This document shows, piece after piece, positions 4,349 to 32,724 of a stretch of DNA of 46,037 nucleotides; position 1 is the stretch's first letter, and each line of letters opens with the position of its first letter. Source of the DNA: Escherichia phage ClaudiaMuster_Bas77; sequence record PQ850598.1; one strand, given 5' to 3'. Below the pieces are notes generated by a model. It had not been told where the DNA came from. It saw only the letters and a list, made by a program, of their open reading frames with translations, and ran no database searches. Position numbers and translations under genes: made by a program.

Positions 4349-4357
4349 CCATGCTAT

Positions 4358-4388: not shown

Positions 4389-4396
4389 GGTGACAT

Positions 4397-7433: not shown

Positions 7434-7445
7434 TTTTGTTCTCCG

Positions 7446-8112: not shown

Positions 8113-8126
8113 CGTTTGATGTAGAT

Positions 8127-8173
8127 ACTATGCACCACCACTCAATCTACGTCAATAGCCATTGTGATAGAAT
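8127..8173. promoter_or_regulatory. divergent promoter region with TCTAC-core motifs
   Basis: Minus strand: TTGACG (rc of 8150-8155), 17-nt spacer, CATAGT (rc of 8127-8132). Plus strand: extended -10 TGaTAGAAT at 8165-8173, ahead of the lysis cassette. Confidence 0.5.
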
Positions 8174-8199
8174 TAATCATTATTTGAACAGGAGGCAGA

Positions 8200-8478
8200 A
8201 TGAAACTATCGCAACGCGGCATGGAGGTGTTTGGAATTACCGATGCCGTAGATATATCGCCTTACATCACCACTGAGACAACACAGAATCAGTTTGATGC
8301 GCTGACAAGCCTTGCCACCGACATCGGCATTGACTCGTTCCGCAAATCAACGCTTCTGAAGAAACACAATCTCCGCTGCTTCTCATGTGTCGTCGCGCAT
8401 TTCATCGTGTGGGGTGAGAAGACTGGCGACAAAGCAAAACGCAAGGCTGAAAAAGAGGTTTACTGGTATGGCTATTAG
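8200..8478 (+). CDS. hypothetical protein (92 aa), first gene of lysis operon
   Basis: Track ORF with AGGAGG-like RBS; no TM helix, so not an obvious holin. Confidence 0.5.
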   Translation: MKLSQRGMEVFGITDAVDISPYITTETTQNQFDALTSLATDIGIDSFRKSTLLKKHNLRCFSCVVAHFIVWGEKTGDKAKRKAEKEVYWYGY

Positions 8479-8932
8479 CAAAAACATGAAGGCGTTTCTG
8501 GATATGCTGGCGTACAGCGAGGGCACTGATAACGGGCGGCAGAAAACCAATAATCATGGTTATGATGTGATTGTTGGCGGCTCACTGTTTACCGACTATT
8601 CCGATCACCCGCGCAAGCTGATTAGCCTGCCTAAGCTGGGCATCAAATCCACTGCCGCCGGGCGCTATCAGGTGCTGGCTAAATTTTATGATGCGTACAA
8701 AAAGCAACTGCGCCTGCCTGACTTCTCCCCCGCGTCACAGGACGCTATCGCAATGCAACTAATCCGTGAATGCAAAGCCACCGCCGATATTGAGACTGGT
8801 CGCATTGCTGATGCTATCCATAAATGCCGCTCCCGCTGGGCTTCATTACCGGGCGCTGGCTATGGTCAGCATGAGCAGAAGCTGGATAAGTTGATTCAGG
8901 TATACAAAGAGGCTGGCGGAGCTGTGGCATGA
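8468..8932 (+). CDS. endolysin, lambda R-like lytic transglycosylase
   Basis: Track ORF 8387..8932; ATG at 8468. KAFLDMLAYSEGTDNGRQKTNNHGYDVIVGG...FTDYSDHPRK...WASLPGAGYGQ matches lambda R as recalled from memory. Confidence 0.85.
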   Translation: MAISKNMKAFLDMLAYSEGTDNGRQKTNNHGYDVIVGGSLFTDYSDHPRKLISLPKLGIKSTAAGRYQVLAKFYDAYKKQLRLPDFSPASQDAIAMQLIRECKATADIETGRIADAIHKCRSRWASLPGAGYGQHEQKLDKLIQVYKEAGGAVA

Positions 8933-9168
8933 AAAAGCTAAGCAACTGGCTGCTCGGCGCGTGGATTTCATTCTGCTCACTATTGCAGCTATGGCCTGAT
9001 GCAATGATGCACGTGTGGGTAATGATGCCGGACGACCTGAAAGCGGCGCTACCGCCAATCGTGGTCAAAGGTGTAAGCTACTCCATCATGCTGGTTGGTA
9101 TTCTCGGAAAAATGCACGGCATGAGGAAGGAGAACCGGAGGCTGCGCAATGATGTCAATTCTCGCTAA
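8929..9168 (+). CDS. putative holin (two TM helices)
   Basis: 79-aa ORF between endolysin and spanins; TM segments LLGAWISFCSLL and SYSIMLVGILG, basic C-terminus. Confidence 0.5.
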   Translation: MKKLSNWLLGAWISFCSLLQLWPDAMMHVWVMMPDDLKAALPPIVVKGVSYSIMLVGILGKMHGMRKENRRLRNDVNSR

Positions 9169-9640
9169 ATACTGGCGACCACTGGCAATTATTATAATTG
9201 TTGTCTCTGGCGCGTTGTGGGCGCGTAGCGAAATCATCAGCTACGGCGACCAACGATACGCAGAAGGCAAATCCCAAGCAATCGCCGAACAGAAGGCCGC
9301 AGACGAACAAGAGGAGCAACGACGCAATGCAGAACTGCAAAAGATTCAGGCTGACGCACAGCAAAGGATTGACGCTGCGCGCAATGATGCTGTCAATGCT
9401 GCTGCTAAGTCTGGCAGGTTGCAGCAACAGCTCGCAAATATCCGCAAGCAGCTCGTCGGATATTCCACCGCTGAGTCCATTGGCAATCCAGCCGCAGAAA
9501 CCGGAGTTTTGCTTGGAGACGTGCTCGGCAAATCTGTCGAAAGAAATCGACAACTGGCAGATTATGCTGACAGGGCAAGAGAGGCAGGATTAGCGTGTGA
9601 GGCGCAGTATAATTCGCTGCGTAATAAAAAAGCCCCGTGA
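9149..9640 (+). CDS. i-spanin (Rz-like)
   Basis: N-terminal TM helix (PLAIIIIVVSGALWA) followed by Q/A/E/R-rich coiled-coil; last gene of lysis cassette. Confidence 0.7.
   Translation: MMSILAKYWRPLAIIIIVVSGALWARSEIISYGDQRYAEGKSQAIAEQKAADEQEEQRRNAELQKIQADAQQRIDAARNDAVNAAAKSGRLQQQLANIRKQLVGYSTAESIGNPAAETGVLLGDVLGKSVERNRQLADYADRAREAGLACEAQYNSLRNKKAP
9384..9593 (+). CDS. o-spanin (Rz1-like), embedded in +1 frame of Rz
   Basis: Internal ATG in track ORF 9198..9593; lipoprotein signal MMLSMLLLSLAGC (lipobox LAGC) then Pro-rich periplasmic segment; wholly inside the Rz gene. Confidence 0.65.
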   Translation: MMLSMLLLSLAGCSNSSQISASSSSDIPPLSPLAIQPQKPEFCLETCSANLSKEIDNWQIMLTGQERQD

Positions 9641-9658
9641 TGGGGCTTGTGTTTAATT
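9629..9658 (+). terminator. rho-independent terminator
   Basis: AGCCCC gtgat GGGGCT hairpin followed by TGTGTTTAATT at the end of the lysis cassette. Confidence 0.6.
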
Positions 9659-9779
9659 GGTTTGTTAAGATTCTTCCCGCTGCTTCCACATCTGTTTCAG
9701 CTGGAAATAAGCATACGCTTCATCACCATCTTTCGCATTGCGCTCCATTTGCTCACACCATGCCGATGGTTTTGGCGGC

Positions 9780-10085
9780 TCACTCTGCTGGCAATGTTGT
9801 TGGCTCATTAACAGATTCCTCAACCGCAGATTCAACGATGCGCACCAGTGAGCACTCAAGATTCGGTGCATTGTAATTACCAGCCAGAAACAGAACACTG
9901 CCGGTGCTGATTAATACCTGCTTTGCGTTCGCCTGTGACAGATTCTGCACGATGAATTGCGCTGTTTCCGTGCCGATTTTTAGCACTGCGCTGCCGTCGC
10001 TGTTCAGTGATACCGGTTGTGCTGAAGTGTCGGTAATATTGGTGTAGCTCGCGTTTCGTTGCGCGATTGTTATGTCTGTGAACAT
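9780..10085 (-). CDS. hypothetical protein (101 aa)
   Basis: Track ORF; start coupled to upstream stop. Confidence 0.4.
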   Translation of the reverse strand: MFTDITIAQRNASYTNITDTSAQPVSLNSDGSAVLKIGTETAQFIVQNLSQANAKQVLISTGSVLFLAGNYNAPNLECSLVRIVESAVEESVNEPTTLPAE

Positions 10086-10086
10086 A

Positions 10087-10308
10087 TTAGCCTCTTACGT
10101 TTAATTTGATTTTTCCATCCACGTCGCGTGATGCACACTCAACAGTGATTGTTAACTTGGTGATCTCTTCGACGTCTGCATCAAGAATCAAGCGGACGCA
10201 ACCACCAACTATTCTACCATCCTGATCAACAACGCGAATTTTATCATCGACTCTTTCAACGTGGAGCCAAACCTTTTCTTCATCACAGCCATTATTGAGA
10301 ATTGACAT
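10087..10308 (-). CDS. hypothetical protein (73 aa)
   Basis: Track ORF; ATG overlaps upstream stop. Confidence 0.5.
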   Translation of the reverse strand: MSILNNGCDEEKVWLHVERVDDKIRVVDQDGRIVGGCVRLILDADVEEITKLTITVECASRDVDGKIKLNVRG

Positions 10309-10739
10309 TATTTAATCTCCAGTTCTTTTGCGCGAATTGCGCTGTCAATGATGTCTTGCAAATCCTGTTCGCGCGATTTATGTCCGCGCTCGCCAGCCTG
10401 TAATGCCTTCTTGATTAAGTGCTGCAATGCAGGGTTGGTGACATTCCACGCCATGAGCACATCGTATACGTCAACAAATATACCCGGCTTAATCTCGTGC
10501 AGGTATTTGTTATCAGCCTCAGGAGCGCCAATGCAATCATTGAGGTCTTGTTCGTCGGTAATTGGCTCGCGGTATGCAATAACAACATCCCCGCGACCCT
10601 CAATCACTTCAATGCGATCAGCATAATATTTGCTTAGATAGAAAATCTCACCAGTCCTTTCTGACTTAACTACAAGATAAGCCGCGTTATGGCCAGCAAA
10701 ATCATCCTCATAACCTTTCAGATATTTCCACTTTTTCAT
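10308..10739 (-). CDS. hypothetical protein with DUF3310-like C-terminal segment
   Basis: 143-aa track ORF; C-terminal DVLMAWNVTNPALQHLIKKALQAGERGHKSREQDLQDIIDSAIRAKE resembles the DUF3310 phage family signature as I recall it. Confidence 0.45.
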   Translation of the reverse strand: MKKWKYLKGYEDDFAGHNAAYLVVKSERTGEIFYLSKYYADRIEVIEGRGDVVIAYREPITDEQDLNDCIGAPEADNKYLHEIKPGIFVDVYDVLMAWNVTNPALQHLIKKALQAGERGHKSREQDLQDIIDSAIRAKELEIK

Positions 10740-10930
10740 TTCATCGTCACCCGATTATTTTCATCAACATTAAAATTCGCACGAATCAAATCATACATGT
10801 CATTTTTAGGCATATCAGCCAGCGCCACATAGCAACGGGCAAAGTAGCGAACATCACGGAGTGTCAGCGGCTGCCGCTTCTCCACAATGCTGGTGATAAT
10901 GTCCATCGGCTCGCGTCGTGGTCTTGGCAT
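10736..10930 (-). CDS. hypothetical protein (64 aa)
   Basis: Track ORF with AAGGAG RBS; first gene of the minus-strand cassette. Confidence 0.5.
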   Translation of the reverse strand: MPRPRREPMDIITSIVEKRQPLTLRDVRYFARCYVALADMPKNDMYDLIRANFNVDENNRVTMK

Positions 10931-10954
10931 ATTTACTACTCCTTCTCGAAAAAC

Positions 10955-11020
10955 ATCTTGACGTTTCTACATCACTTAGTCAATACTTATTGACGTAGAT
11001 TGTACCACAACGGAAAAGGT
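10955..11020. promoter_or_regulatory. divergent regulatory region with GTTTCTACATCA and TTGACGTAGATTG motif copies
   Basis: Lies between divergently oriented gene starts (10930 minus, 11029 plus); contains two TTGACG hexamers and both motif variants; exact -10 elements ambiguous. Confidence 0.4.
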
Positions 11021-11028
11021 GATGTGGA

Positions 11029-11227
11029 AATGCGATACAAAGAAATAGCAGCGAGATACCAGAAAGAAGTGCGCGAGGTTATGGAAATCCTTAACGTTCG
11101 CGAAGATACCATTAAGTATGTGGAAACTGCCATGTGTTCACTTGCTCTTGAAGCGGAGGTTGCAGGTCGTGAAAAGGCTGACGAACTTATATCTGCGTTG
11201 GTTTATAGTTCAACCAGTAACGGTTGA
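11029..11227 (+). CDS. hypothetical protein (66 aa)
   Basis: Track ORF 11000..11227 (TTG); ATG at 11029 with AAGGTGA RBS. Confidence 0.5.
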
Positions 11228-11287
11228 ATATGAAGGTTATCTGTGCGTTGAGCACGTTGTTATCAAGTTCTACGGGAGAAATTATAA

Positions 11288-11482
11288 ATGGCGCATGACG
11301 AACTGTACGAAGAATCGTTAATCCAGCGACTGAATGAAGTTGAGCGCACACGCGAATGGCTGGAGTGCGAATTGCGAGAGGTGCGCAATCGACTGCAACG
11401 CAAACGCAGTCAACAGAAAGATGTTATCGACTGGTCTGGCAATGCACCTAAATTTAACAACATTGGAGAATGGTTGAAATGA
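11288..11482 (+). CDS. hypothetical protein (64 aa), coiled-coil
   Basis: Track ORF; GGGAG RBS. Confidence 0.5.
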   Translation: MAHDELYEESLIQRLNEVERTREWLECELREVRNRLQRKRSQQKDVIDWSGNAPKFNNIGEWLK

Positions 11483-11700
11483 GAAAGTTCAGTACGTTAG
11501 TTGATTTAATTTTTGCTGACATAAGTGAGGATAACGCCAGAAGCGAGAAGTCAAAAAATCAGCGTCAGGATATTACGTTTCGCACACTGCTTAAGCAATC
11601 AATGCGCAATAAGAAGGAGTGGAGATACAGGCGCGACAGAGTTCTGATAAGACTGTGCAAATTGAATATGAATAAGATACTTAAGGATATGACCAAATGA
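11470..11700 (+). CDS. hypothetical basic protein
   Basis: Track ORF; alternative ATG at 11479 has better RBS spacing. Confidence 0.45.
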   Translation: MVEMRKFSTLVDLIFADISEDNARSEKSKNQRQDITFRTLLKQSMRNKKEWRYRRDRVLIRLCKLNMNKILKDMTK

Positions 11701-11945
11701 CAGCACCACATATGCCAATGATGAATGATAGCGGGTTGCTGTGCTGCCCATTCTGTGGCGGGAATGAAGTTTACTTGAATATTGATTTAGTGCTTGTATC
11801 TGTCGAATGCGGAGATTGCTGTGCAAGTTCAGGTGAATGGGGTTCACCGGAAACCGCTGTCAGGCACTGGAACACCCGCAACGGACACCTATACACCGCA
11901 GACGACTTCAATCAGGCAGCAGAGGAGCGTGATTATGGACTATAA
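11697..11945 (+). CDS. Lar-like restriction alleviation zinc-ribbon protein
   Basis: 82 aa; CCPFCGG ... VECGDCC ... AVRHWNTRN matches the Lar family pattern (CPFCG ... C..C ... WN.R) as recalled. Confidence 0.55.
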   Translation: MTAPHMPMMNDSGLLCCPFCGGNEVYLNIDLVLVSVECGDCCASSGEWGSPETAVRHWNTRNGHLYTADDFNQAAEERDYGL

Positions 11946-12423
11946 ATCACAAATCATGCGCGTGATTATGAATCACCCCGGTTCAACGCGCGCATATATT
12001 GAGAAGCATTGCGGAGGAAAGCATTCAAGCACCACAACGCATCGTTTGCATGAGATGCTTGCGCTTGGATTCATTCGCCGTGAGAAGTCCGTGATTCGCG
12101 GTGGGAAGTGGCAGTATAAATATTTCATCTCTGATGATGCAGCTGGTATTGATGATGCTATTAAGTGCCATTTGCTTGATAACGCTGGCGCAGAGGTGAA
12201 AGAAATCAGCGTAGCCACTGGCATTGATTACCGAATCGTGAAAAGCCGCATCCGCATTATGTTTCATAACGGTGATGTAACGCGAAGATATGACCACCAC
12301 AAGAAGCTGTGGCGTTATTCTTGGCATGAGAAGGAAGTTAACGTCAGCAACCTGTTTAATTCACTTCTTCGCAATGTAAGAGGTCGTCATGGGGAAAGCC
12401 AAACGCAAGAAGCAAGAGTATGA
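11935..12423 (+). CDS. hypothetical protein, possible winged-helix DNA-binding protein
   Basis: Track ORF 11794..12423; ATG at 11935 (MDYKSQIMRVIMNHPGSTRAYIEK); helix-turn-helix-like segments; weak call. Confidence 0.4.
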   Translation: MDYKSQIMRVIMNHPGSTRAYIEKHCGGKHSSTTTHRLHEMLALGFIRREKSVIRGGKWQYKYFISDDAAGIDDAIKCHLLDNAGAEVKEISVATGIDYRIVKSRIRIMFHNGDVTRRYDHHKKLWRYSWHEKEVNVSNLFNSLLRNVRGRHGESQTQEARV

Positions 12424-12565
12424 GCCATTACCGCCATGCGAAATGTCAGGAATGCCGCAGCAGGAGGATGTGATTCTCACCGAGGCTGAGTGGCGCAAGG
12501 TGGCAAGAGTGCAAATCATGTTCCGCAAACTTGCTGAGGACGTACTAAATGAGATGGGCTATTAA
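12389..12565 (+). CDS. hypothetical protein (58 aa)
   Basis: Hand-translated: MGKAKRKKQEYEPLPPCEMSGMPQQEDVILTEAEWRKVARVQIMFRKLAEDVLNEMGY. Confidence 0.35.
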   Translation: MGKAKRKKQEYEPLPPCEMSGMPQQEDVILTEAEWRKVARVQIMFRKLAEDVLNEMGY

Positions 12566-12896
12566 GCATAAATCTGGCAGAACTCTGTTTATTACATCGG
12601 ATGAGTTTATTGCCAATAACCGTAGAAAGATGGGCTGGATAGTGGAGGAAGTGAAGATGACGAGTAGAGAGCAGTTTGAGGAGTGGGCCAAGGAGAACGG
12701 AATGAGTCTTGTTTATGGTGACTGTGATTATGTGTATTCGCCAACCGTATGGGCGTGGAAAGCATGGCGAGCATCGCGCTCAGCAATTGAGATTGAATTG
12801 CCAGCGGTAGAGATTGGTTATGAAATGATGGAATACTACGAGCCTCAACAGGTTATTGAGGCAATCAAACAAGCAGGCTTAAAGGTGAAAAAATGA
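12549..12896 (+). CDS. hypothetical protein (115 aa)
   Basis: Track ORF. Confidence 0.5.
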   Translation: MRWAIKHKSGRTLFITSDEFIANNRRKMGWIVEEVKMTSREQFEEWAKENGMSLVYGDCDYVYSPTVWAWKAWRASRSAIEIELPAVEIGYEMMEYYEPQQVIEAIKQAGLKVKK

Positions 12897-13219
12897 TTAT
12901 CCCATTAAACGACATTATGAAAGCAGACATCATTCAGCTTGAAGATTATGACATGCAACTGGCGTTTGAAATAGAAACTGTTGAGCGTCAACTGCAATAT
13001 GCTGATAAGAAGAATGATCGCATCTGGCATGAGAAAGCGCTTAAAGCACGGGACCACATGAAGCGCACGCGCGCACTTATTAAAACTCGTCTGGATAAGC
13101 TGTATTTTGGCGAGGAAAGATATTTGCATGGCGCAATTCTGGCGCAAATCCGCAAGGAAATGCCTATTGGTAAGTTCATGTCATACGTGCACCGGGCAAA
13201 GCAGGAGGCTGGGTTATGA
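12893..13219 (+). CDS. hypothetical protein (108 aa)
   Basis: Track ORF; ATGA overlap with upstream gene. Confidence 0.5.
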   Translation: MIIPLNDIMKADIIQLEDYDMQLAFEIETVERQLQYADKKNDRIWHEKALKARDHMKRTRALIKTRLDKLYFGEERYLHGAILAQIRKEMPIGKFMSYVHRAKQEAGL

Positions 13220-13404
13220 GCGGCCCAAAATTTCCAGAGCTGCCTGTTGAGGTTCAGGTTGCATTGATTAATGCAGCAAGTGCAATGGCGACAAAGAAGA
13301 TTGAGGCAATAGGAAGCGATTACAACAGGAGCATAGACTGGTTTCAGAGGGAGTATCAAAAAATCTGCGACGCACTCTACAAAGAAAACAGGGGTAGACC
13401 ATGA
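13216..13404 (+). CDS. hypothetical protein (62 aa)
   Basis: Track ORF; coupled to neighbours. Confidence 0.45.
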   Translation: MSGPKFPELPVEVQVALINAASAMATKKIEAIGSDYNRSIDWFQREYQKICDALYKENRGRP

Positions 13405-13547
13405 TCCAATTACTGTGGATATTATCAGCATACGCATTCGCGAGAGTATTTGAGGCTGATACTCTGTACCAGATGATTTGCTATGGCGCTCTGTTCTGTC
13501 TCTCTGGTGCCGCGCTTGCATTTATGGATGATGTGATTTCAGACTAA
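13401..13547 (+). CDS. small membrane protein (48 aa)
   Basis: Hand-translated: MIQLLWILSAYAFARVFEADTLYQMICYGALFCLSGAALAFMDDVISD; ATGA overlap with upstream stop. Confidence 0.4.
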   Translation: MIQLLWILSAYAFARVFEADTLYQMICYGALFCLSGAALAFMDDVISD

Positions 13548-13741
13548 CTCCGTATATCTTTTGTTCATTATGGGCTGCTATCATTTAATCAGGAGGTAGC
13601 CCATGAATATAATCCCCATCACTTACTTTCTTACGCTATACGCACTTACCAATTCTCCATTGTTTGCACTGGCTACCGCCTCATGGTGCTATATCTCCCT
13701 GTGTTATAATTCGACCACAAACTAACCGTGGAGAGTTAACC

Positions 13742-15621
<1,880 letters not shown>

Positions 15622-15623
15622 TA

Positions 15624-16694
15624 ATGGAAAAGATTATTTTTACCAAAGACCTGGTAGCCAACTCCGCAGTGGTGGCTGACCAGTGGAAACATCTGACCAT
15701 CGACCGCAAGGTGTTCTGCAATGCAGAAGCTGAACTGGCGAAAACATACGGTGTTAACGCCACCGCACTGGTAACGAAAGATTACTGGCGCGACGTGGAT
15801 AACGTCACCACCCGCGTTTTCCGCAACGAAGCTGGTCAGGACATGATGGCTGACCTGATGGGCATCGCGGCAAACATCAACATCGGAAAGACTGTGGCAA
15901 TCAGCCGCATTGCTTCCGATGCTGGAAAGGTAGTCCGCACTCTGTCTGGTCAGGAGCCGGAAGATTTGGATAAAACTCGCTACGATTACACTGGCGATGT
16001 GATCCCAATCTTCAAAACTGGCTACAGCCGAGAATGGCGCGAGCTGCTGGGTATGCAGTCTGAAGGCTTCGACCCACTGCTGGACGATCAGGCCAACGTC
16101 ACCTTTAACCTGCGTTCCGACATGGCGCAGTATCTGCTGACCGGCGACCAGACTCTGAACGTGAACGGCGTTTACACTGGCTATGGTATCACCAACCACC
16201 CGAACACTGTTCAGGTTAACCTGAATGCTCCCGGCGGCCTTAATATCGACCTGCAAACTGCAACGCCAGACGAAATCGTGACCTTCTTCAATCAGGATTT
16301 CCAGGCTATTCTGGATGCGCAGAACGTATTTGAGCAGGTGACTCTGTGGGTTTCTCCGGCAGTGCGTCGTAGCTTCATGCGTCCGTATTCTGATGCGGCA
16401 GGCTTCAAAGGCGGCACTGTTGAGCAGTACATCACGCAGTTTGGCAATGGTCGCATCGGTAAGATTGGCACCAACTTCCTGCTGACTGGTAACCATTTCG
16501 TTGGCTACGTTCGCAACGACATGTACATCCGTCCGCGTGTTGCTCAGCCAGTTTCCACCTACGCGGCAGCTCGTGCCAACCCGCACGATAACTTTAACTT
16601 CCTCGTGTGGTCTGCTTTTGGTTTGCAGATTCGCAAGGACGCCACTGGCAAGTCCAGAGTGTTCAACGGCTACGGTACGCAAACTCCGGTGTAA
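15624..16694 (+). CDS. major capsid protein
   Basis: 356-aa ORF after scaffold and decoration genes, followed by strong terminators; a 390-aa antisense ORF here is a mirror artefact. Confidence 0.75.
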   Translation: MEKIIFTKDLVANSAVVADQWKHLTIDRKVFCNAEAELAKTYGVNATALVTKDYWRDVDNVTTRVFRNEAGQDMMADLMGIAANINIGKTVAISRIASDAGKVVRTLSGQEPEDLDKTRYDYTGDVIPIFKTGYSREWRELLGMQSEGFDPLLDDQANVTFNLRSDMAQYLLTGDQTLNVNGVYTGYGITNHPNTVQVNLNAPGGLNIDLQTATPDEIVTFFNQDFQAILDAQNVFEQVTLWVSPAVRRSFMRPYSDAAGFKGGTVEQYITQFGNGRIGKIGTNFLLTGNHFVGYVRNDMYIRPRVAQPVSTYAAARANPHDNFNFLVWSAFGLQIRKDATGKSRVFNGYGTQTPV

Positions 16695-16698
16695 TAAA

Positions 16699-16722
16699 AA
16701 AAGGGGCGAAAGCCCCTTTATG
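16699..16722. terminator. bidirectional rho-independent terminator
   Basis: AAGGGGC gaaa GCCCCTT hairpin flanked by an A-run upstream and T-rich sequence downstream. Confidence 0.6.
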
Positions 16723-16737
16723 AATTTGAGGTGAATA

Positions 16738-16935
16738 ATGGCTAAATACGAAGTGATCGCTCGCGGAATCTTTGTTAAAGAGAAGGGCAAGATTCGTGAA
16801 TTGCAGCTTGGCGAGGTGATTACCGAGCCAGACGAGCATCTGCTACCAAAACTGCGCGTTATGCCAGAACTGGAAAAGACTTTCGAAGTCGCAACCCCGC
16901 AACAAAAGACGACAAAGAAAAAGAAAGCAGAGTAA
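16738..16935 (+). CDS. hypothetical protein (65 aa)
   Basis: Track ORF with GAGGTGA RBS, bracketed by two terminators. Confidence 0.5.
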   Translation: MAKYEVIARGIFVKEKGKIRELQLGEVITEPDEHLLPKLRVMPELEKTFEVATPQQKTTKKKKAE

Positions 16936-16938
16936 ACA

Positions 16939-16964
16939 AAACCCGCATCATGCGGGTTTTTTAT
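16939..16964. terminator. bidirectional rho-independent terminator
   Basis: ACCCGCAT c ATGCGGGT hairpin followed by TTTTTTATT; separates the plus-strand capsid operon from the converging minus-strand cassette. Confidence 0.65.
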
Positions 16965-16966
16965 TG

Positions 16967-17506
16967 CTACAGACGCATCGGCATAACAACAATCTTAGCA
17001 GTCTCGCCAGATGGCGCATTAAGACAGCAAACTGCGGCATTTGTGTTTCCATTAAGTTCAAATTTGATACAACTGAATTTAGGATTAAACAGCTTCGCCA
17101 CTTTCTCAACGTCAACCAGATATCCAGCATTGAAGCCAATTTCCTCTGCTGGCAAGGTCTGCTTCGGAATGACGCGATCAATATCAGGGAATCGCCCGTC
17201 AATCTCTTCACAGATACCAGCACCAACCATAACGCCAGCTTCATCATGATACGTTGCAATTTTCGACTTTGTATCAATGATGGCGTAGTCATAGCGTTTT
17301 GTTGGTGACTTGCCAATCTTGATAATCACATTTTCTGTAAGATTATTATCATGGTTTCCACCAATAAATGCGCGATGACCGTCAGTTGATGCAATACGAC
17401 CATCAGGCATAAAGCAAATGCCATTCAGGTAATATCGCACATCGTTGCGCGCCTGAAATATTAATGCTGATTCAAGTAATAGTTTGCCGATTTTTAGTTT
17501 CATCAC
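16967..17506 (-). CDS. truncated beta sliding clamp (DnaN)-like protein
   Basis: 179 aa; [54 protein letters not shown] and C-terminal IVVMPMRL match E. coli DnaN ([67 protein letters not shown]; recalled from memory). It lacks domain I and part of domain III. Confidence 0.65.
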   Translation of the reverse strand: [179 protein letters not shown]

Positions 17507-17676
17507 TTCACCTTAATCATATGCTGTTTTGCAACCTTCAGGCACTCCTCAAAAATGCCACCCTTCTTTGCGCTCTGATTGCGCTTGTAATACTGAACTG
17601 CCGCATCAATTGCCATCTGGTCGATTTCAGGCAGTTTGGTGCGTAGTTGTTTTTCAATGAATTGTTCTGGTGTCAT
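17503..17676 (-). CDS. hypothetical protein (57 aa)
   Basis: Hand-translated: MTPEQFIEKQLRTKLPEIDQMAIDAAVQYYKRNQSAKKGGIFEECLKVAKQHMIKVK; start overlaps the methyltransferase stop (TAATG), stop overlaps the clamp-like gene start. Confidence 0.4.
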   Translation of the reverse strand: MTPEQFIEKQLRTKLPEIDQMAIDAAVQYYKRNQSAKKGGIFEECLKVAKQHMIKVK

Positions 17677-18473
17677 TAAACGGACCTCATGAATGCTTTA
17701 ATGAATTCTGCTGCGACTTGTGGAACTATGGCATTGCCATAACCGCGCAATCGTCCCACTCTTGCGGATACCCCATGAGTTGCCTCGCAAAATCCGCCTG
17801 GTATGACTCTAGTTTCCTTATCTGCTCCATGGTTGGGTTTCCATGAATCCCATAAACATGAAGCCACATCTGGCGATAAAGAGTATCGTTCCTGAATTTT
17901 CCGTCCTTTCTGTAAAATGTCTTGCTGAGATCCCCGTAATCCTTCCATCCTCGCGCCGTTGGTGTCGCCCATCCTCGCGCCAAAGATGATTCTTTTCCTT
18001 TCCTGTGGAGAGCCGACGCTGCAAGCTGGCAATACTGACGCCCCGCAGGCGTAGCCTTTGTCTTCCAGGTTAAGGAATACAAAATCGAGCCAGTGCTTCC
18101 CAATTGCTGCTGCAACCTGCTCTCCAAACAGCAATTCAGGCTTGCACTCTCTGATGAGCCTGAGAAATGCTGGGGCAAGGTGTCGATCGTCGTCAAATCC
18201 GAGAGACTTACCGGCAACGCTAAACGGCTGGCAAGGTGGTGATCCTGTCCAGAGTCGAGTGCTTTCTGGTATTCCTGCCAGCTGGAGTGCAAGGGGCCAC
18301 CCTCCGATTCCGGCAAAGAAGTGACACTGTGTAAATCCTTCCAGGTCTGAAGGGGTGACTTCGGTGATTGATCGTTCATCGACATATCCGTAAGGAATTA
18401 GTTTATTGTTAATTAATTCACGCAGCCATGCCGCTGCGCCCTTGTCCCACTCATTGTAATAGTGGACCATCAT
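17676..18473 (-). CDS. DNA (cytosine-5)-methyltransferase, minimal
   Basis: C5-MTase motifs in canonical order: I FFAGIGG, IV SPPCQPFS, VI-like LFGEQV (ENV variant), VIII QERKR, X GNAIVPQV. Only ~265 aa with a short target-recognition region. Confidence 0.75.
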   Translation of the reverse strand: MMVHYYNEWDKGAAAWLRELINNKLIPYGYVDERSITEVTPSDLEGFTQCHFFAGIGGWPLALQLAGIPESTRLWTGSPPCQPFSVAGKSLGFDDDRHLAPAFLRLIRECKPELLFGEQVAAAIGKHWLDFVFLNLEDKGYACGASVLPACSVGSPQERKRIIFGARMGDTNGARMEGLRGSQQDILQKGRKIQERYSLSPDVASCLWDSWKPNHGADKETRVIPGGFCEATHGVSARVGRLRGYGNAIVPQVAAEFIKAFMRSV

Positions 18474-19282
18474 CACATCTTCTCCAGAATTGCCATCACC
18501 TCGTGAATATCAGCAACAGGAATCTGGATAAACTCCTCATTCTCTGCCACTACATGACCAGCAGGAAGAATAACGTGGTCAGCTGGCTTCAGTAACTCAA
18601 TCAGTCGGTCTACTGGCTTAATCTTTTTCGACTTAAGCACCTTCGCCGTTACCTTATCCTTGCCTTGCGCCTTCGCTTCTTCGACTGCCTCGTCGATAAC
18701 TTTAACCGCATCATCGCCATGTTCGCGAGTTACTGCTACGGCATTTGCATAGCTGATTTGCCCTGCACTGATTCGCGCTTTTACTTCGGCTGGCACATCA
18801 CCCAGTGACAGGTGCATCTGCACGTCAGAAACTGAGCGCCCTACCTTCTTGGCGATTTCCTCGTTGGTCCAGCCAAAACCCTTCAGTCGCGTGTAAGCCT
18901 TTGCGCGTTCAAACGGGTCAAGCTGCTTACCCTGACTGGACGACACCATGAAGGCGATTTTATCTGCTTCGCCTCCTGTGAAATCCTTGCACTCAATACG
19001 AACAATTGGTGCGCCACGCTCAATGGCACGCAACGCTCCGAGATAGCGATGCTGACCATCAAGAATGCGGATTCCCTTCTCGTCTGGAATAACTGTTAAT
19101 GCTGGCAATGGCTGACCTGACTCCCAGCACTGCGCGAAATACTCCACATGCTGCTCATCTGCCTCACGGATGTTGTATCCCGGCTCAAGATAGATTTGCT
19201 CAACTGGAACGAGATATGTTTTGTTAACAGCGATGCCGTTACGCGTTTCTTTGTCTGAATAGATTTTGCTGAGTGTTTTCAT
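18473..19282 (-). CDS. ParB-like nuclease-domain protein (DGQHR motif)
   Basis: Track ORF 18473..19294 (GTG); ATG at 19282. IRILDGQHRYLGALRAIERG carries the DGQHR signature of the DndB/ParB-like family; helix-turn-helix-like segment TNEEIAKKVGRSVSDV. Confidence 0.6.
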   Translation of the reverse strand: MKTLSKIYSDKETRNGIAVNKTYLVPVEQIYLEPGYNIREADEQHVEYFAQCWESGQPLPALTVIPDEKGIRILDGQHRYLGALRAIERGAPIVRIECKDFTGGEADKIAFMVSSSQGKQLDPFERAKAYTRLKGFGWTNEEIAKKVGRSVSDVQMHLSLGDVPAEVKARISAGQISYANAVAVTREHGDDAVKVIDEAVEEAKAQGKDKVTAKVLKSKKIKPVDRLIELLKPADHVILPAGHVVAENEEFIQIPVADIHEVMAILEKM

Positions 19283-19283
19283 A

Positions 19284-19481
19284 TCATTCACCACTTTCTT
19301 CTAACAATTGCTCATAATATGCGACGTATTCATTAGCCAGATGGTACAGGCGATCAGCAGACTTGCGTTCTGCATTGCTTAAGTCATCAATAGACTCAAT
19401 GTTGCCAATTGCATCAACACAATCATTGAAGTCTTGCTCCGTGTTACGGAATCTACAGTAGGACATGTTTGCCATAATCAC
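19284..19481 (-). CDS. hypothetical acidic protein (65 aa)
   Basis: Track ORF. Confidence 0.5.
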   Translation of the reverse strand: MIMANMSYCRFRNTEQDFNDCVDAIGNIESIDDLSNAERKSADRLYHLANEYVAYYEQLLEESGE

Positions 19482-19738
19482 TCCTCGTCACCCTGAAAAA
19501 TACCGCCAAACTCTTCAACCAGTTCATCAATGCATTCGTCCGCCTCAGCGCAATTGCCAGCGGCACTCAGCAGAATATCAACAGCCTCATCGTCAGGAAT
19601 GTTGATTGCCGAGAAGAACTCAACAATGCACATTTTCACAACCTGATATTCACCTTCTGTCTGGCAAGATGCGAAACTGCAAGCGACCGCATCAATCAGC
19701 TTGGCTTTGTCATCACTTGGGTTATCAATATCAAACAT
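19478..19738 (-). CDS. hypothetical acidic protein (86 aa)
   Basis: Track ORF; first gene downstream of the minus-strand promoter; GAGGTGA RBS. Confidence 0.5.
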   Translation of the reverse strand: MFDIDNPSDDKAKLIDAVACSFASCQTEGEYQVVKMCIVEFFSAINIPDDEAVDILLSAAGNCAEADECIDELVEEFGGIFQGDEE

Positions 19739-19778
19739 TTCATCACCTCTAACATTTATTGTTGTTTCTACGTCACTA

Positions 19779-19830
19779 ACTATAAACGCACCATCAATCT
19801 ACGTCAACAGGAATATGCTAAAATCATGCT
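19779..19830. promoter_or_regulatory. divergent promoter region (minus: TTGACG-17-TATAGT) with motif copies
   Basis: On the minus strand, TTGACG (rc of 19802-19807), 17-nt spacer, TATAGT (rc of 19779-19784). GTTTCTACGTCA and CAATCTACGTCAA motif copies present; plus-strand TAAAAT near 19819 precedes the 19855 gene. Confidence 0.55.
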
Positions 19831-19854
19831 AATCAAAAAACAGGAGATTTGAGC

Positions 19855-19974
19855 ATGGGTTCAACAAACGGTCCTTCTCGTTCGCGCGCTACTGGAAATA
19901 CCAAAACTGGCGGAAAAACTGGCGCAGTTAAGCCGAACGGTTCCACCCGTTCACCATCGCGCGGGAAGAAATAA
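19855..19974 (+). CDS. small highly basic protein (39 aa)
   Basis: Hand-translated: MGSTNGPSRSRATGNTKTGGKTGAVKPNGSTRSPSRGKK; AGGAG RBS; stop overlaps next ATG (TAATG). Confidence 0.45.
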   Translation: MGSTNGPSRSRATGNTKTGGKTGAVKPNGSTRSPSRGKK

Positions 19975-20414
19975 TGTTCGGCGCAGACATTGCCATCATG
20001 ATCATGTATGTGCTGGGTTTTGCCTGCACGGGCATGGTTGCGTTTCTGGTGTTCATTCCGGCAATGGCGATGTCTGTGTATCTTGGATGGGTGCTTGCTG
20101 ATTCATTTCCCGCCGAATATCTGTATTACCTTGCGCAGTCTATGGTCTGGCTATTCCCGGCTATTGCACTGCGCAAAAGTACAAAAATGGCGCTCTGCGT
20201 GCTGACGATGAGCCTTTACGAAAGGCTGGTAGCGATAGAGTCATTCGTATGGGAATTTATCACGCCTGTAGAAACGCCGCTTCATGCGCAGTACGCATTT
20301 ATTATTATCGGCATCCATCTGTTCATCCTTTCCATCACTTTTAAATGGGGCGGCGAAATTGGACATTATTCTTGGCGTGGTCGCCATTGTTTTTTCGCTG
20401 ATTCAAGTCTATAA
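19974..20414 (+). CDS. integral membrane protein (about 4 TM helices)
   Basis: 146-aa track ORF with four hydrophobic segments. Confidence 0.5.
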   Translation: MFGADIAIMIMYVLGFACTGMVAFLVFIPAMAMSVYLGWVLADSFPAEYLYYLAQSMVWLFPAIALRKSTKMALCVLTMSLYERLVAIESFVWEFITPVETPLHAQYAFIIIGIHLFILSITFKWGGEIGHYSWRGRHCFFADSSL

Positions 20415-21906: not shown

Positions 21907-22277
21907 ACATGCTTGAGCTGGTTGATGCATATCTTCAGGATGCAGGATTGTATGATGGCTGGACTTCGCAGTTGCAGTTCTGGAACGACACCGGAGATGG
22001 CAACGAGCAATTTATTGTTCTGCAATCCAATGGTGGCACGCAGGTGATGGACGGCCTCGGCGGTGACTTCTATTTCTCGCTGTACGTTGTTGGGAAACAA
22101 GGCCAGTACAATGTTGCTGATGTCGACGCTAAAGCCAATGAGATTATCGAATACATCAAGACACATCCGATTGATTCATGCGTGAACTACATCCAGTTGC
22201 AGGCTCCTCTCGGACGACCAATGTTGACGGAGGAGAAGCGCCCTGTGCATGAGTTGCTTTTGCGGGTTGTGAAATAA
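21903..22277 (+). CDS. putative tail terminator protein
   Basis: 124-aa ORF, last of the coupled head-tail joining genes. Confidence 0.4.
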   Translation: MNMLELVDAYLQDAGLYDGWTSQLQFWNDTGDGNEQFIVLQSNGGTQVMDGLGGDFYFSLYVVGKQGQYNVADVDAKANEIIEYIKTHPIDSCVNYIQLQAPLGRPMLTEEKRPVHELLLRVVK

Positions 22278-22282
22278 ATAAA

Positions 22283-22305
22283 GCCGCACGAAGCGGCCTT
22301 ATTGC
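22283..22305 (+). terminator. weak hairpin (GCCGC acgaa GCGGC)
   Basis: Short GC stem immediately after the 21903..22277 stop; poor T-tract. Confidence 0.3.
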
Positions 22306-22309
22306 TGGT

Positions 22310-22940
22310 TTAAGCATTGCCAGCATGCTTTCTTAATATCCAGCCCCGTAACCCATACATACCCCTACATATGATTGCGATAATGCTGGATATTAAGTGT
22401 TGTGGTGGCCGGTGCTGATATCCGGCATAAGGCGCTTATTCGGCGGCGTCGAGCTTGCTTATTCGCTTGAGCCATCCTCGTGAGTCAGCCACGTCCCACT
22501 GCGCATCAGCCTGCGCATTCACCACAACGGAAATAGCACTGGATAACCAAGCGCGCAGACTCTTCACGATTATCTGCTCAATGCTCTTACCTGTTGTGTG
22601 CCACGTTTCGTGTGGCTTACGGCAACGACATTACCTGGTTATTCGCTGCACCCTTGAGGGATTTACTAAGGCGACATGCCCGTTGTTACCCACGAATGAG
22701 AGTACTGTCTTCGAGCAGACTTTGCGCGCAAGAACGACGATCAATCACAATACCCTCATTTGTGGGTGCCCATTATTAATCACAGCGGGCCACTGCGCCG
22801 AATTTGCTTACAAGGAATCGGAAGACCTTGCTGACTTACAGGCTATTACGCCGCCATCAGAACAACATCATCGTTTGCATTTATCTTTGTGGTCAGTTTC
22901 TAAAAAGTCCGCAAAGTCGCTTACGAAAACCATCTGAAAT
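22310..22940. other. ORF-poor ~630-bp region with 13-bp inverted repeat
   Basis: No convincing ORF on either strand (track ORF 22455..22937 starts at TTG and has non-protein-like composition). CTTAATATCCAGC (22332-22344) pairs with GCTGGATATTAAG (22385-22397); GCCGG tgctgatat CCGGC hairpin near 22409-22427. Confidence 0.4.
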
Positions 22941-22942
22941 AC

Positions 22943-22986
22943 AATCTACACCACAAAATAATCACTGTCAACACCTGTGATATAAT
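22943..22986. promoter_or_regulatory. divergent promoter region
   Basis: Plus strand: extended -10 TGaTATAAT (22978-22986) ahead of the major tail gene. Minus strand: TTGACA (rc of 22967-22972), 18-nt spacer, TAGATT (rc of 22943-22948), pointing into the ORF-poor region. Confidence 0.5.
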
Positions 22987-23022
22987 CACCACGTTAGCAG
23001 CTAACACAATTCGGAGATCGAA

Positions 23023-23739
23023 ATGGCTATTTGTGCAAATGATAAAGGCGTTCTGGTCGGTCGCATGACCAGACTGTTCCTTGCTGAAGGGTGCGGAGAC
23101 GCAGTTCCGGAGGCGGGAGACTGGAAGTATTTAGGCTCAACCACCAGTAAGGGTGTTGACTACTCGCCGCAGACTACCACGTCGGAGGCAGATACCACTG
23201 GCGGTTTTGTTTCCACTCTCGTTACCAGCTCTGATATGACCATCAGCGCAGAGGTGGAAATCCGCAAGAATGACCCGAGCGATGAGTTTGGCTTCCATCG
23301 TCTGGTTGAGATTTACGCCACCGAACTGAAAGCTCGTCGCCAGCCTTCCTTGTGGGTGCGTCAGGTGACTGGTGCGACTATCGTTACGGCGTATTGCAAC
23401 ATCACCAGCATCAGCTACGAAGGTGGTACGAACGATATCGTTACTGGCAGCCTTGAGTTCAAGGTTTACGATTCTGATAGCGTTACCGTCGAAAGCCTTG
23501 AGCCTCTGGCATTCACTACAGACCTGCCATCAACTGGCACGGCTGGCAGCCCGTTAACTGTTGCTGTTGAAGGTGGTGTCGCTCCTTACACTTATGTATG
23601 GCGCAAAGATGGCGTGGTTGTCGGCAGCGAATCAGGCGCGTCTCTGGCAAGCCCTGCCGCTGGCGTGTATACCGTCACGGTGACTGATTCGTCTACTGAC
23701 CCTGAAATTATTATCAGCACGGCTTGCACTGTGTCCTGA
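23023..23739 (+). CDS. major tail protein with C-terminal Ig-like domain
   Basis: 238 aa; located just before chaperone and tape measure genes; C-terminal Ig-like segment (TAGSPLTVAVEGGVAPYTYVWRKDGVVVGSESGASLASPAAGVYTVTVTD). Confidence 0.65.
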   Translation: MAICANDKGVLVGRMTRLFLAEGCGDAVPEAGDWKYLGSTTSKGVDYSPQTTTSEADTTGGFVSTLVTSSDMTISAEVEIRKNDPSDEFGFHRLVEIYATELKARRQPSLWVRQVTGATIVTAYCNITSISYEGGTNDIVTGSLEFKVYDSDSVTVESLEPLAFTTDLPSTGTAGSPLTVAVEGGVAPYTYVWRKDGVVVGSESGASLASPAAGVYTVTVTDSSTDPEIIISTACTVS

Positions 23740-24694: not shown

Positions 24695-24733
24695 AACTCA
24701 CCTCATTTATTCATCACTCGTTTCGATGACTTG

Positions 24734-24782
24734 AATCTACATCACCACCTCGCAGGTGTCAACACCACTGAGATGATATAAT
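24734..24782. promoter_or_regulatory. divergent promoter region
   Basis: Minus strand: TTGACA (rc of 24757-24762), 17-nt spacer, TAGATT (rc of 24734-24739). Plus strand: extended -10 TGaTATAAT (24774-24782) ahead of 24803. Confidence 0.55.
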
Positions 24783-24802
24783 CAACATCAGTCAAATTCA
24801 GG

Positions 24803-25519: not shown

Positions 25520-28001
25520 TGGCTGAAGAAGTCGGCGGAATTGTCTATGAAGTCGGGATGGATGTATCCGGGCTGACGACTGGCGGGCAAAAGGTAAACA
25601 AGGTTCTTCAGGAGATTGAGAAGTCAATTGATGAGTCAATTGCCGGGATAAATAAACTTGATACCGGATTAAAAAACACCGCATCGACAGCTGAGAAATC
25701 TGGCAGGAGTTTCTCCAGTTTAAATAACGCCATGAGACAGGGCGGCTACCAGATTCAGGACTTTGTAGTTCAGGTGCAGAGCGGACAATCGGCACTCGTT
25801 GCTTTAAGTCAACAAGGTAGTCAGTTATTAAGCGTCTTTGGTTCTGGAGGCGCAGTTGCCGGTGCATTGCTAACCATCGGTACGGTAATCGTTGGCTCAT
25901 TAATTGCTGGCATGGATAACGCAGCCGTTTCCACAAAGGCGCTCACCGCAGCACAGCAGCGACTTGCTGACATATTCCAGCTTTCTGCTAATGGAGTTGT
26001 AGTTCTCTCTGACAAATTCGCAACACTGGCTAAACAGTCAGAAAACGCCGCCAGAGCACAGTTAACAATGGCTCTGATTGATGCAAACAATATCATCAAG
26101 GCTTCAGTGCAGGGCGTCAATGAGCTTGGCGACGCACTTGGCTCATGGAAAGCGCCACTATCAGCCGCCATCAGCCAGCTTGACACACTGAAAGCAAGAG
26201 GCATTGATGTAAACACAGCACTCAAGAATCTTGGCGGGACATATGAGGGTAATATCCTCGGACTAAACCAGCTTAATCAGGTGGTAAAAAGTCTGGCAGA
26301 TGAGTTTGGCATAAGCGCCGAGGATGCTTTGAAGCTGGTTGAAGCTCTGGCGGCGGTGAGAAAAAACGCCAATCCTGAAACAATAGCAGAATTACGTGAC
26401 CTGACTGTTGACCTTAGTCAGAAATATGGATATGCAAACAAGTCGCTATCTGAACTGACTGGCAAGGTTGGCGAATATTCCATTTCAGCAGATCAGGCAG
26501 CAGAATCTACAAAAATGGCTACCGACATGCTTAACGGTCACAAGGTAGCTTCAGAAGAGGATGCGAGAGCAACTGAAGAAAACACGAAAAGGCTTCAGGC
26601 TTACATCCAGTCGATCAAGGAAGAAGGTGAAACCATCGCCTTTACCGCCAGACAAAAGGCTCTGTACAGAGCAGAGCAGCTTGGAGCAAGTGACGCAGAT
26701 AAGCAAACAATCAACTCGTCGTTCGACAAGATAGAGGCTTACAAAGCTGAACTTGCCGCAAAGAAAGAGCAGGAAAGGCAAGATAAAAAACGCATAACTG
26801 CATCAACAAAACAGGCCAATCTTGAAGAGTCGGTAGCTCAGAAGCTGGAAAAATTACGCCAGCAAACCATGCTCAATGCCACGTCTACCAGCGAACTATC
26901 ACGCGAGCAAGCAATTCTCAACGCGCAGCAATCGCTTGGCAAGGCCGCCACTCAGGAGCAAATAAAACTGGCTGGTGAGTACGCTGCGAAGATTTGGGAC
27001 CAGAAGAATGCATTGAAGGAGCAAGCAGAAGCGGAAAAAGAAAAGCAACGCGTAGAAAAATCATATCAAGGGTTGCGCGCTATTGCATCGCCAACCACTG
27101 GCATTGACAGTGAATACCAGCAACGTATGGCTGACCTTGACGCCTACGCCGCAGCATATCCGCAGAAAATCACGGAGATTGAGCAGACTCGCGCAGCAAT
27201 TGAAGCACAATACCGCCAACAGCGAATGGACGCTATGTGGGCTGAATGGCAGCAACAAAGCCTCGGTGCGCAACTGTTCGGTACCGCTCTTGATTCAGCA
27301 ATGAGTACGGCATCAAACAGCATCACCGGATTGCTTACCGGAACGATGAGCGTTCAGGATGCCATGCGCAGCCTCGGCTCTACGGTGCTGAACTCTCTGG
27401 TAAACAGCTTCATTGAAATGGGTGTGCAGTGGGTTAAATCTGCTGTTATGGGGCAGACTGCACAGGTTGCGGCTACGGCAACCACAACGGCGGCGCAAAC
27501 GGCAGGATTGGCAACCACAACAGCAGCATCTACGGCGGCGGCAGCAACCACTACGGCGGCATGGACTCCGGCAGCAATCGTCGCATCAATCGGCTCATTC
27601 GGCGGGGCGGCTGCAATTGGGGTAGGTGCCGTTCTCGGAGCGCTGGCGATGGGCATTGCTGGCAAGCGTAAAAATGGTGGCCCTGTTAGTGCCGGAAGTA
27701 TGTACGAAGTTGGCGAAAATGGCTTGCCTGAAATATTCCAGGCGTCCAACGGCCGCCAGTATATGATTCCCGGTAACGATGGATCAGTTATCAGCAACAA
27801 AGACCTGACAGGCGGCAGCAGTGGCGTTGTAGTTTATAATAGCATTATCAATAACAGCTCAGCGCAGGTTAGCAGCAGCGCCAGAGATAATGGTGACGGC
27901 AGCGTGACGATTGAGACGATTGTGAGTGATATAGAAAACAACGGCCCCATTGGGCAAAGCATTAGCCGCAACTACTCAGCAAACCGGAGAGCAACCGAAT
28001 A

Positions 28002-28002: not shown

Positions 28003-32724
<4,722 letters not shown>

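Follow-up and report, generated by a model that had tools for sequence, protein, structure and literature searches.

Why does one short sequence recur at promoter after promoter of a virulent phage, and what reads it? The question is raised by Escherichia phage ClaudiaMuster_Bas77 (sequence record PQ850598.1), a Skatevirus-type siphophage of which the stretch analyzed here, 46,037 bases long and called the window throughout, is essentially the complete genome. We consider it in particular for the region around 19764-19806, where two copies of a 12-mer with a TCTAC core lie among predicted promoters that point in both directions. Sequence comparison leads us to favor, modestly, the view that the 12-mer is a dispersed operator, present in about 16 copies that are mostly paired, and that it would be bound by the phage's own ParB/KorB-family helix-turn-helix (HTH) protein. 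We infer the binding of the motif by this protein, and with it both the timing of regulation and whether each promoter is turned up or down. The features at the center of the argument are these:

19764-19775, plus strand: motif copy A (GTTTCTACGTCA)
19795-19806, plus strand: motif copy B (CAATCTACGTCA)
19779-19807, minus strand: leftward sigma70-like promoter TTGACG-17-TATAGT, matching at 10/12 positions and joint-best within 1-20000
19816-19824, plus strand: extended -10 TGCTAAAAT of the rightward head-tail/late operon, which starts at 19855
18473-19282, minus strand: ParB/KorB-like HTH protein of 269 residues, the candidate binder, with recognition helix V151-D162 (VSDVQMHLSLGD)

The motif and its association with transcription-start regions

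Our gene map consists of our own calls, corrected by the annotation of Escherichia phage SusanneMuster_Bas79 (PQ850629), which aligns with most of the window at 96-99% identity, several mosaic replacements aside. It makes 94% of the window coding and about 6% non-coding, with the genes in about 13 blocks that run alternately leftward and rightward. Five genomes were compared in full: the window, Salmonella phage SeSz-2 (a close relative, genus Skatevirus), LPSTLL, and the Klebsiella phages BUCT541 and RSU-F4K5. In conserved genes, nucleotide identity between the window and the Klebsiella phages is only about 72%, and the replication module of RSU-F4K5 is largely different. Further relatives, with 54-71% identity, were fetched for comparison of the ParB-like protein and the motif. 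The BASEL paper on these phages limits its account to O-antigen-dependent small siphoviruses.

The consensus of the motif is t-N-A-A-T-C-T-A-C-R-Y-C-A, or nAATCTACRYCA in its 12-mer form. Exact matches to TCTACRYCA number 16 in the window against 1.15 expected, a count that none of 100 dinucleotide-preserving shuffles reached, and 13 of the 16 fall outside coding DNA, that is, within about 6% of the sequence; over the five genomes the non-coding share is 75 of 80. The pattern does not depend on the seed. When the pentamer TCTAC alone was used in the five genomes, its 106 non-coding copies carried A at -2 and at -1 (73/106 each), R at +5 (98/106), T at +6 (71), C at +7 (84) and A at +8 (85), and this flanking pattern was absent from the 198 coding copies. 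A motif-anchored matrix of 53 non-redundant sites confines the information to positions -4 to +8. TCTACGTC ranks first or third among the over-represented 8-mers of all five genomes, with a 14-17-fold excess over order-3 Markov expectation, and when orthologous regulatory regions are aligned the motif blocks are invariant while the neighboring bases drift.

An initial annotation of this DNA had located the motif correctly at every position that it listed, leaving out a partial copy at 610-621 (TTATCTACGTCT); its 'GTTT' variant is the same motif with a -35-like TTGAYG directly before it. It had also seen no copy in coding sequence. That statement has to be softened, since two copies that it missed lie inside genes (28692-28703 and 34912-34923) and the one at 38070 overlaps a gene, but nothing like the non-coding density is seen in coding regions.

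Among intergenic regions of the window, the motif occurs in all six divergent ones and is missing from all six that are convergent. The five genomes give the same picture, with copies in 34/40 divergent regions (62 copies), 14/79 tandem regions and 0/37 convergent regions. The motif is thus restricted to transcription-start regions and conserved in a clade wider than Skatevirus, and its geometry relative to the promoter hexamers is variable. All promoters discussed here are predictions from a scan with the sigma70 consensus. Depending on the promoter, the motif sits at the -35, in the spacer, after the -10 or upstream (30-35 nucleotides (nt) upstream at late extended -10 promoters), and the motif-anchored matrix contains no promoter hexamers at a fixed offset. 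Both orientations occur, as first reported; the accompanying spacing of 17-20 base pairs (bp) is true of two of the four pairs, the gaps being 19, 13, 5 and 16 nt (17-31 from start to start). We also tried a fixed rule by which the motif points toward the downstream gene. It is true at most sites but is broken by the copy at 38070, by the corresponding copy of BUCT541, and by the orthologues of the 610 site in SeSz-2 and BUCT541; in BUCT541 the second copy of the lysis-region promoter has the opposite orientation to that in the window.

The motif therefore lacks the constant position and orientation relative to -10, -35 and start that a sigma70 core element would have. Because both vary, and because two copies are kept within a core promoter, we take it to be an operator and not an element read by the polymerase. 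For the same reason we do not retain the description of the motif as a genome-wide promoter signature, which had been offered together with the idea of an operator for a single regulator; the latter is the better reading, with one regulator touching nearly all operons.

A ParB/KorB-family protein and its recognition helix

Domain searches with about 20 mostly small or conserved open reading frames (ORFs) returned DNA-binding signatures for two, 18473-19282 and 11935-12423. The first has a ParB-type HTH DNA-binding domain. It matches Pfam HTH_ParB (E-value 2.5e-11) and KorB (4.5e-6), aligns with Spo0J, ParB, Noc and KorB, and finds Spo0J 1VZ0 with phmmer at 6e-13. Its AlphaFold2 model (mean predicted local distance difference test score, pLDDT, 86.6) retrieves ParB, KorB and Noc structures in Foldseek with E-values of about 1e-9, the best template modeling (TM) scores being those of KorB 8QA9 and Caulobacter ParB 6T1F (8qa9_B, 0.56/0.70). 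Sequence and predicted structure together place it in the ParB/KorB family. The fold of the N-terminal ParB/Srx domain is also present, lacking the GERRxRA motif for binding cytidine triphosphate (CTP), and this domain has a weak match to TIGR03187 (DGQHR; E-value 0.0099). We observed the form DG(Q/H)HRY in most of the ParB-like homologues retrieved.

The ParB-like protein is the best-conserved non-structural protein, with 98.5% identity in SeSz-2 and LPSTLL and 81% in the Klebsiella phages, and its HTH segment GFGWTNEEIAKKVGRSVSDVQMHLSLGDVP is 100% identical in the five motif-bearing genomes compared in full. Motif copies stand in the promoter of the ParB-like gene or its operon in every lineage examined, namely at 19764-19806 in the window and in the relatives that we label L163, L164, L209, L211 and L212. 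In L163 and L164 (71% and 64% identity) they form the palindrome GTAGAT-N4-ATCTAC directly 5' of the gene. The arrangement in L209 is a head-to-head pair; L211 has two copies in direct orientation, each hexamer being followed by one. The phages of two distant homologues, Erwinia phage 59 and Enterobacter phage Arya, which are temperate or unrelated, have no TCTAC motif, a result that speaks neither for nor against the proposal.

Across lineages, the recognition helix correlates with the core of the motif at the sequence level. Lineages whose helix reads SDVQ(M/Q/T)HLS (L163-165, L213, L209, L211 and L214) all have an ATCTAC core. In L212 the helix is SDIHTHLS, with the changes Q155H and M156T mid-way in the modeled recognition helix 151-162, and there the orthologous promoter positions have the core TATCTGCGTCAA, or TCCGC in the upstream copy of the lysis promoter. 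At the divergent region between the ParB-like and late operons and at the lysis promoter, CAATCTACGTCAACA and TCAATCTACGTCAAT are replaced in L212 by ATATCTGCGTCAACA and GATATCTGCGTCAAT, with no change in the TTGACG, TATAGT and TGATAAAAT next to them or in the flanking GTCAACA. Since a hexamer that the polymerase would read is kept while the core beside it changes, the operator is separable from the -35. In L210, whose helix is SDVQSHLCL, a single ATCTAC was found in 20.8 kb.

L210 has instead intergenic TTGCGCA(A/T) repeats, seen by eye (in 1-204, 4112-4186, 9364-10000, 11681-11931 and 16596-16787), which may be an alternative operator, and a repeat search of L210 aimed at such an operator returned only terminators and origin-like repeats. 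Two further comparisons were set aside: the density of WATCTAC per helix group, for which the 7-mer is too short to discriminate, and a scan of IMG/VR for motif pairs, which mixed true relatives with chance matches.

Copies and their predicted promoters

At the central locus, copy A lies just 3' of the leftward promoter's -10 (at about +4 to +15 for a start some 7 nt past this hexamer) and at the same time in the spacer of a weaker rightward match, TTGTTG-16-TATAAA; it is unchanged in five aligned phages with the Q-M helix and degenerate in L212. The reverse complement of copy B is the leftward -35, TTGACG, and the copy itself stands where the rightward extended -10 promoter would have its -35. 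The operon of the leftward promoter, 19807-19779(-), encodes anti-restriction, 63-residue, ParB-like, Dcm-like methyltransferase and 57-residue proteins and RusA. What is conserved across the locus is the leftward 5' untranslated region together with copy A, the ACTATA at 19779-19784 (in all relatives) that is the TATAGT -10 on the other strand, copy B followed by ACA (19795-19809), and the TATGnTAAAAT of the extended -10, which is shared by six phages. The remaining copies of the window are as follows:

610-621, plus strand: partial copy, just past a terminator and 5' of the gene at 745
2700-2711 and 2723-2734, plus strand: two direct copies (CAATCTACACCG, TAATCTACATCA), 5' of the gene at 2755
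8117-8128 (minus strand, GTATCTACATCA) and 8143-8154 (plus strand, CAATCTACGTCA): divergent pair
10963-10974 (plus strand) and 10991-11002 (minus strand): convergent pair, its 16-nt gap conserved among relatives
22942-22953, plus strand: single copy, 5' of the major tail protein gene
24733-24744, plus strand: single copy, 5' of the tape-measure/tail operon
28692-28703 and 34912-34923: copies inside genes, with weaker flanks
38070-38081, plus strand: single copy, antisense to the flanking minus-strand genes and 5' of HNH/exonuclease genes
40439-40450 and 40464-40475, plus strand: two direct copies between the leftward helicase and rightward primase genes
44532-44543 and 44549-44560, minus strand: two direct copies at the edge of a putative replication origin

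Two of these promoters, TTGACC-17-TAGTAT at 2695-2723(+) and TTGATG-18-TATACT at 40434-40463(+), have one copy directly after each hexamer. The leftward promoter TTGACG-17-CATAGT at 8155-8127(-) repeats the layout of 19807-19779(-), and opposite it the rightward promoter of the lysis cassette has an extended -10, TGATAGAAT, at 8165-8173, so that at both 8143 and 19795 the extended -10 (TGATAGAAT and TGCTAAAAT) follows 12-13 nt downstream of a motif at the -35 position. In the convergent pair, the motif lies in the spacer of the rightward promoter TTGACG-18-AATACT (10958-10987(+)), and the leftward extended -10 TGGTACAAT overlaps the minus-strand copy. At 44531-44559(+) the reverse complements of the two copies supply both hexamers of the rightward promoter TTGACG-17-TAGATT. 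The initial annotation had proposed that the motif itself provides hexamers for sigma70, and this can be kept for TTGACG at 19807(-), 8155(-) and 44531(+) and for TAGATT at 44554-44559(+); elsewhere the motif falls in the spacer, after the -10 or upstream. The reverse-complement TTGACG/TTGATG and TAGATT are usable as hexamers at those three promoters, and at most other sites there is no partner hexamer or gene in the reverse-complement direction. The minus-strand gene 38069-38494 runs with its last codons, at the 3' end, into the copy at 38070-38081.

At the late tail promoters of 22942 and 24733 the motif is followed by 12 nt (a conserved distance), then TGTCAACA, then an extended -10, TGATATAAT, which lies 9 or 14 nt beyond TGTCAACA in the window and 3-14 nt beyond it across relatives. 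These promoters (22954-22990 and 24745-24790 in the window; 23600-23666 and 21760-21818 in the relative L004) share a second conserved element, TGTCAAC(A), 12-13 nt 3' of the motif, which may be the site of a second, late factor. Directly 5' of the major-tail promoter, the window has a single ORF of 160 residues (22455-22937) where Bas79 is annotated with two at 22263-22789 (126 and 50 residues), possibly a frameshift or a difference in annotation.

Several other features of the window deserve mention. The 587 bp at 44003-44589, beside the helicase operon, are gene-free and AT-rich (G+C content down to 24.5%), show a change of sign in GC skew, and hold 6 of the window's 15 copies of TTACCGG together with related ACCGGT and TTTACC repeats; they are probably a replication origin with iterons, and similar repeats, CCGGTAAA, occur in L210 at 30-75. 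The octamer TCCGCAAG (CTTGCGGA) is present in 11 copies (9441, 13149, 14025, 14099, 17761, 23261, 24549, 28460, 33481, 40284 and 44327) against 1.45 expected, and in none of 100 shuffles was this number reached. Ten of the 11 are in genes, 9 of these 10 reading TCCGCAAG on the coding strand, and a Chi-like or orientation-dependent signal is possible. Relative to Bas79, the mosaic gaps of the window are 2960-3162, 3793-4347, 19283-19735, 25572-26892 and 41481-44528, so the replaced segments include the stretch between the ParB-like gene and the 19738 promoter. HNH endonuclease genes are found at 1-489 and 37397-37963.

Proposed programme, its rivals and known systems

On these comparisons we can outline how the motif might work. 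The ParB-like protein would be made early from 19807-19779(-), which ranks among the two best sigma70-type matches of the window's first 20 kb, and would then occupy the 12-mers, its own promoter included. Occupation would repress early and middle promoters wherever a copy overlaps their -35, spacer, -10 or start site, in the manner of Cro or KorB; the repressed set would comprise the protein's own operon, the small-gene operons leftward from 8094 and from 10930, the operon rightward from 11030, and the primase, 2695 and 44531 promoters. Where a site lies at or upstream of the -35 of an extended -10 promoter, as at the lysis, head-tail, major tail and tape-measure operons, it might activate or modulate. 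More broadly, and with slightly less than even confidence, we suggest that a ParB/KorB-family protein without the canonical CTP-binding motif may be a clade-wide master regulator of transcription, acting through some 16 asymmetric operators with Q155/TCTAC and H155/TCTGC co-evolving, in a KorB-style circuit that would set the early-to-late programme of lytic phages. At the same tentative level, the clade would comprise virulent siphophages of Skatevirus, Segzyvirus and Roufvirus-like groups and more distant relatives.

Several observations weigh against these proposals. Sigma70-like matches are overall no commoner in the consensus scan than in shuffles. Residues 75-83 of the N-terminal domain read DGQHRYLGA where ParB and KorB have GERRxRA, so that CTP-dependent clamping is not to be assumed. 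Characterized sites of ParB, KorB and Noc are palindromes bound by dimers; the motif is asymmetric, and its pairs, spaced at 17, 23-25 and 30-31 nt when direct and with a 16-nt gap when convergent, have no common helical phase. The HTH domains of P1 ParB are flexibly tethered, and by analogy, though this is conjecture, such tethering would accommodate asymmetric and variably spaced sites. The co-variation of helix and core comes from one H155 lineage and one divergent lineage, whose other proteins differ too. Finally, two late tail promoters of L212 retain a TCTAC copy beside a TCTGC copy, and in the Klebsiella phages, which have the Q-M helix, TATCTGC precedes TCTAC at the major-tail promoter; both may point to a second factor or to relaxed specificity.

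Such a second factor leads to the explanation that survives best among the rivals, unlikely as we judge it: that the motif is the operator of something else, whether the winged-helix protein of 11935-12423, an unrecognized small phage protein or a conserved enterobacterial host factor. The winged-helix gene follows a Lar-like gene in synteny in the window, SeSz-2, LPSTLL, BUCT541 and RSU-F4K5. Its 162-residue product falls in PHROG 1687 ('MarR family'), has a weak MarR-type match (E-value 0.002, below the Pfam cut-off) and possibly contains two winged-helix-like segments, an arrangement that would fit an asymmetric site; AlphaFold2 modeled only the N-terminal winged helix (pLDDT 49). The protein had been named as a candidate at the outset, but its putative recognition helix varies (TTTHRLHEML, SVTHRIIELL, SVTGYLIELE, RINLCLVEME) among phages in which the motif is identical. 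Its identity among relatives is 50%, 37% and 35% (35-37% in the Klebsiella phages). The loci of L212 and L213 span the syntenic Lar operon, yet neither yielded a homologue, even though L213 keeps the TCTACATCA motif. (The C-terminal part of this fast-evolving protein matches a PHROG family of 'Ren-like exclusion protein' at 6e-6.) The other candidate proposed earlier, 45321-45602, has no DNA-binding signature and only weak PHROG family matches, one of them Lar-like. Several small conserved phage proteins without an assignable function could fill the role, and the TCTAC retained at the late promoters of L212 is a hint of a second reader. As for a host factor, it would leave unexplained the parallel A-to-G change at several L212 sites, which tracks a phage protein, and we know of no E. 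coli factor with this consensus.

It is quite improbable that host RNA polymerase reads the motif as an intrinsic element, either an extended -35 (TTGACGTAGATT) or a -10 with its discriminator (TAnAAT-CTACRYCA), with no need for a dedicated regulator. The motif is limited to start regions, its TTGACG and TAGATT form plausible hexamers at the three promoters named above, and in several copies the AAT completes a TAYAAT -10 (TACAATCTAC at 10999(-) and 22945, TATAATCTAC at 2726). Yet its offset to other promoter elements is not fixed, it takes either orientation relative to the downstream gene, and its 12 conserved positions exceed what sigma70 reads. In L212, moreover, TTGACG is kept at several promoters where the adjacent core changes from TAGATT to CAGATA. 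The annotation of the near-identical Bas79 includes neither a phage RNA polymerase nor a sigma factor.

We give just as little credence to parS-like sites with a non-transcriptional role, in DNA organization or partition or in targeting the Dcm-like methyltransferase, whose intergenic location would reflect freedom from coding constraint. The candidate binder is in the ParB family, the cytosine-5 methyltransferase gene (17676-18473) lies directly downstream of it, and some phage ParB homologues are partners of DNA-modifying enzymes (PMC13229309). Those homologues, however, have no DNA-binding domain, unlike the 18473-19282 protein. SeSz-2 and LPSTLL, both with the motif, have no homologue of the methyltransferase, and in L164 convergent ORFs, not a downstream partner gene, follow the ParB-like gene. 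Copies are in 0 of 37 convergent regions and common in divergent ones, and core elements of predicted promoters are overlapped by them. The Bas79 annotation lists no ParA-type partner, a dedicated search for ParA not having been made. A function of the motif in RNA was considered and rejected: Rfam gives no match anywhere in the window, and the best promoter at the 8143 and 19795 copies lies 3' of the motif, which is therefore not always transcribed.

If the operator is read by the ParB-like protein as we propose, ParB-family biology would extend to asymmetric sites and to the control of viral transcription. Small virulent enterobacterial siphophages are widely isolated and used (the BASEL collection; biocontrol of Salmonella and Klebsiella), and we found no account of how their transcription is programmed in the Skatevirus papers that we checked; in the literature searched on Skatevirus, Roufvirus, Segzyvirus and phage ParB/KorB proteins we found neither the motif in a phage context nor a discussion of the promoters of these phages. 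A named candidate regulator and a single 12-bp operator at almost every promoter make up a model of the transcription programme that can be tested directly. The model also points to a possible role of the 'ParB-like partition protein', an unexplained annotation in hundreds of lytic phage genomes, and a compact regulator/operator pair with a possible specificity switch of one residue and one base could be usable in phage engineering.

The nearest likeness is to KorB and its operator OB in the IncP-1 plasmids such as RK2, where a ParB-family HTH protein acts at about a dozen operators at promoters across the replicon, its own operon included. Multiple copies of the motif at promoters, including those of the candidate regulator's own operon, are found in the phage as well; its protein has the Pfam KorB domain, and the KorB structures 8QA8 and 8QA9 are among its best fold matches. 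The differences lie in the site, since OB is a 13-bp palindrome (TTTAGCSGCTAAA) and the window has an asymmetric 12-mer (AATCTACRYCA) in pairs of variable spacing and orientation; in the GERRxRA of KorB against DGQHRYLGA; in the setting, a plasmid against a virulent siphophage; and in partners, no KorA, TrbA or IncC having been identified in the phage, where no specific search for co-repressors was made.

With ParB-parS, Noc-NBS and P1 ParB box A the protein shares its fold, and its recognition helix aligns with those of Spo0J and ParB. The half-sites of this family are T-rich (parS TGTTTCAC, P1 box A ATTTCAC), and the phage core, (A/T)ATCTAC or GTTTCTAC, resembles them, with a true palindrome in L163 and L164. 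However, the phage sites are at promoters and not in centromere clusters, the CTP-binding motif is unconserved, and the apparent function is transcriptional. A palindromic centromere with ParA is not what the window presents, given its asymmetric site and the lack of an annotated ParA noted above, and membership in either the parS or the OB family of sites is not supported.

Other phages offer parallels in layout. P1 C1 is a single protein with asymmetric operators scattered at phage promoters, single or paired and in either orientation, and in this it resembles the many dispersed operators with one reader proposed here, but the protein family differs, the operator sequence is unrelated and P1 is temperate. 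The switches of lambda Cro, phi29 p4 and T4 MotA likewise place one early phage protein at many promoters, with repression over the core and possibly activation that replaces the -35 of an extended -10 promoter (here 8143-8154 and 19795-19806), although none is related in sequence or fold to the phage ParB-like protein, and activation in our case is conjecture. The motif network, for which we found no prior description in the literature, would on our reading be a set of KorB-like global operators in virulent phages, built on an asymmetric operator.

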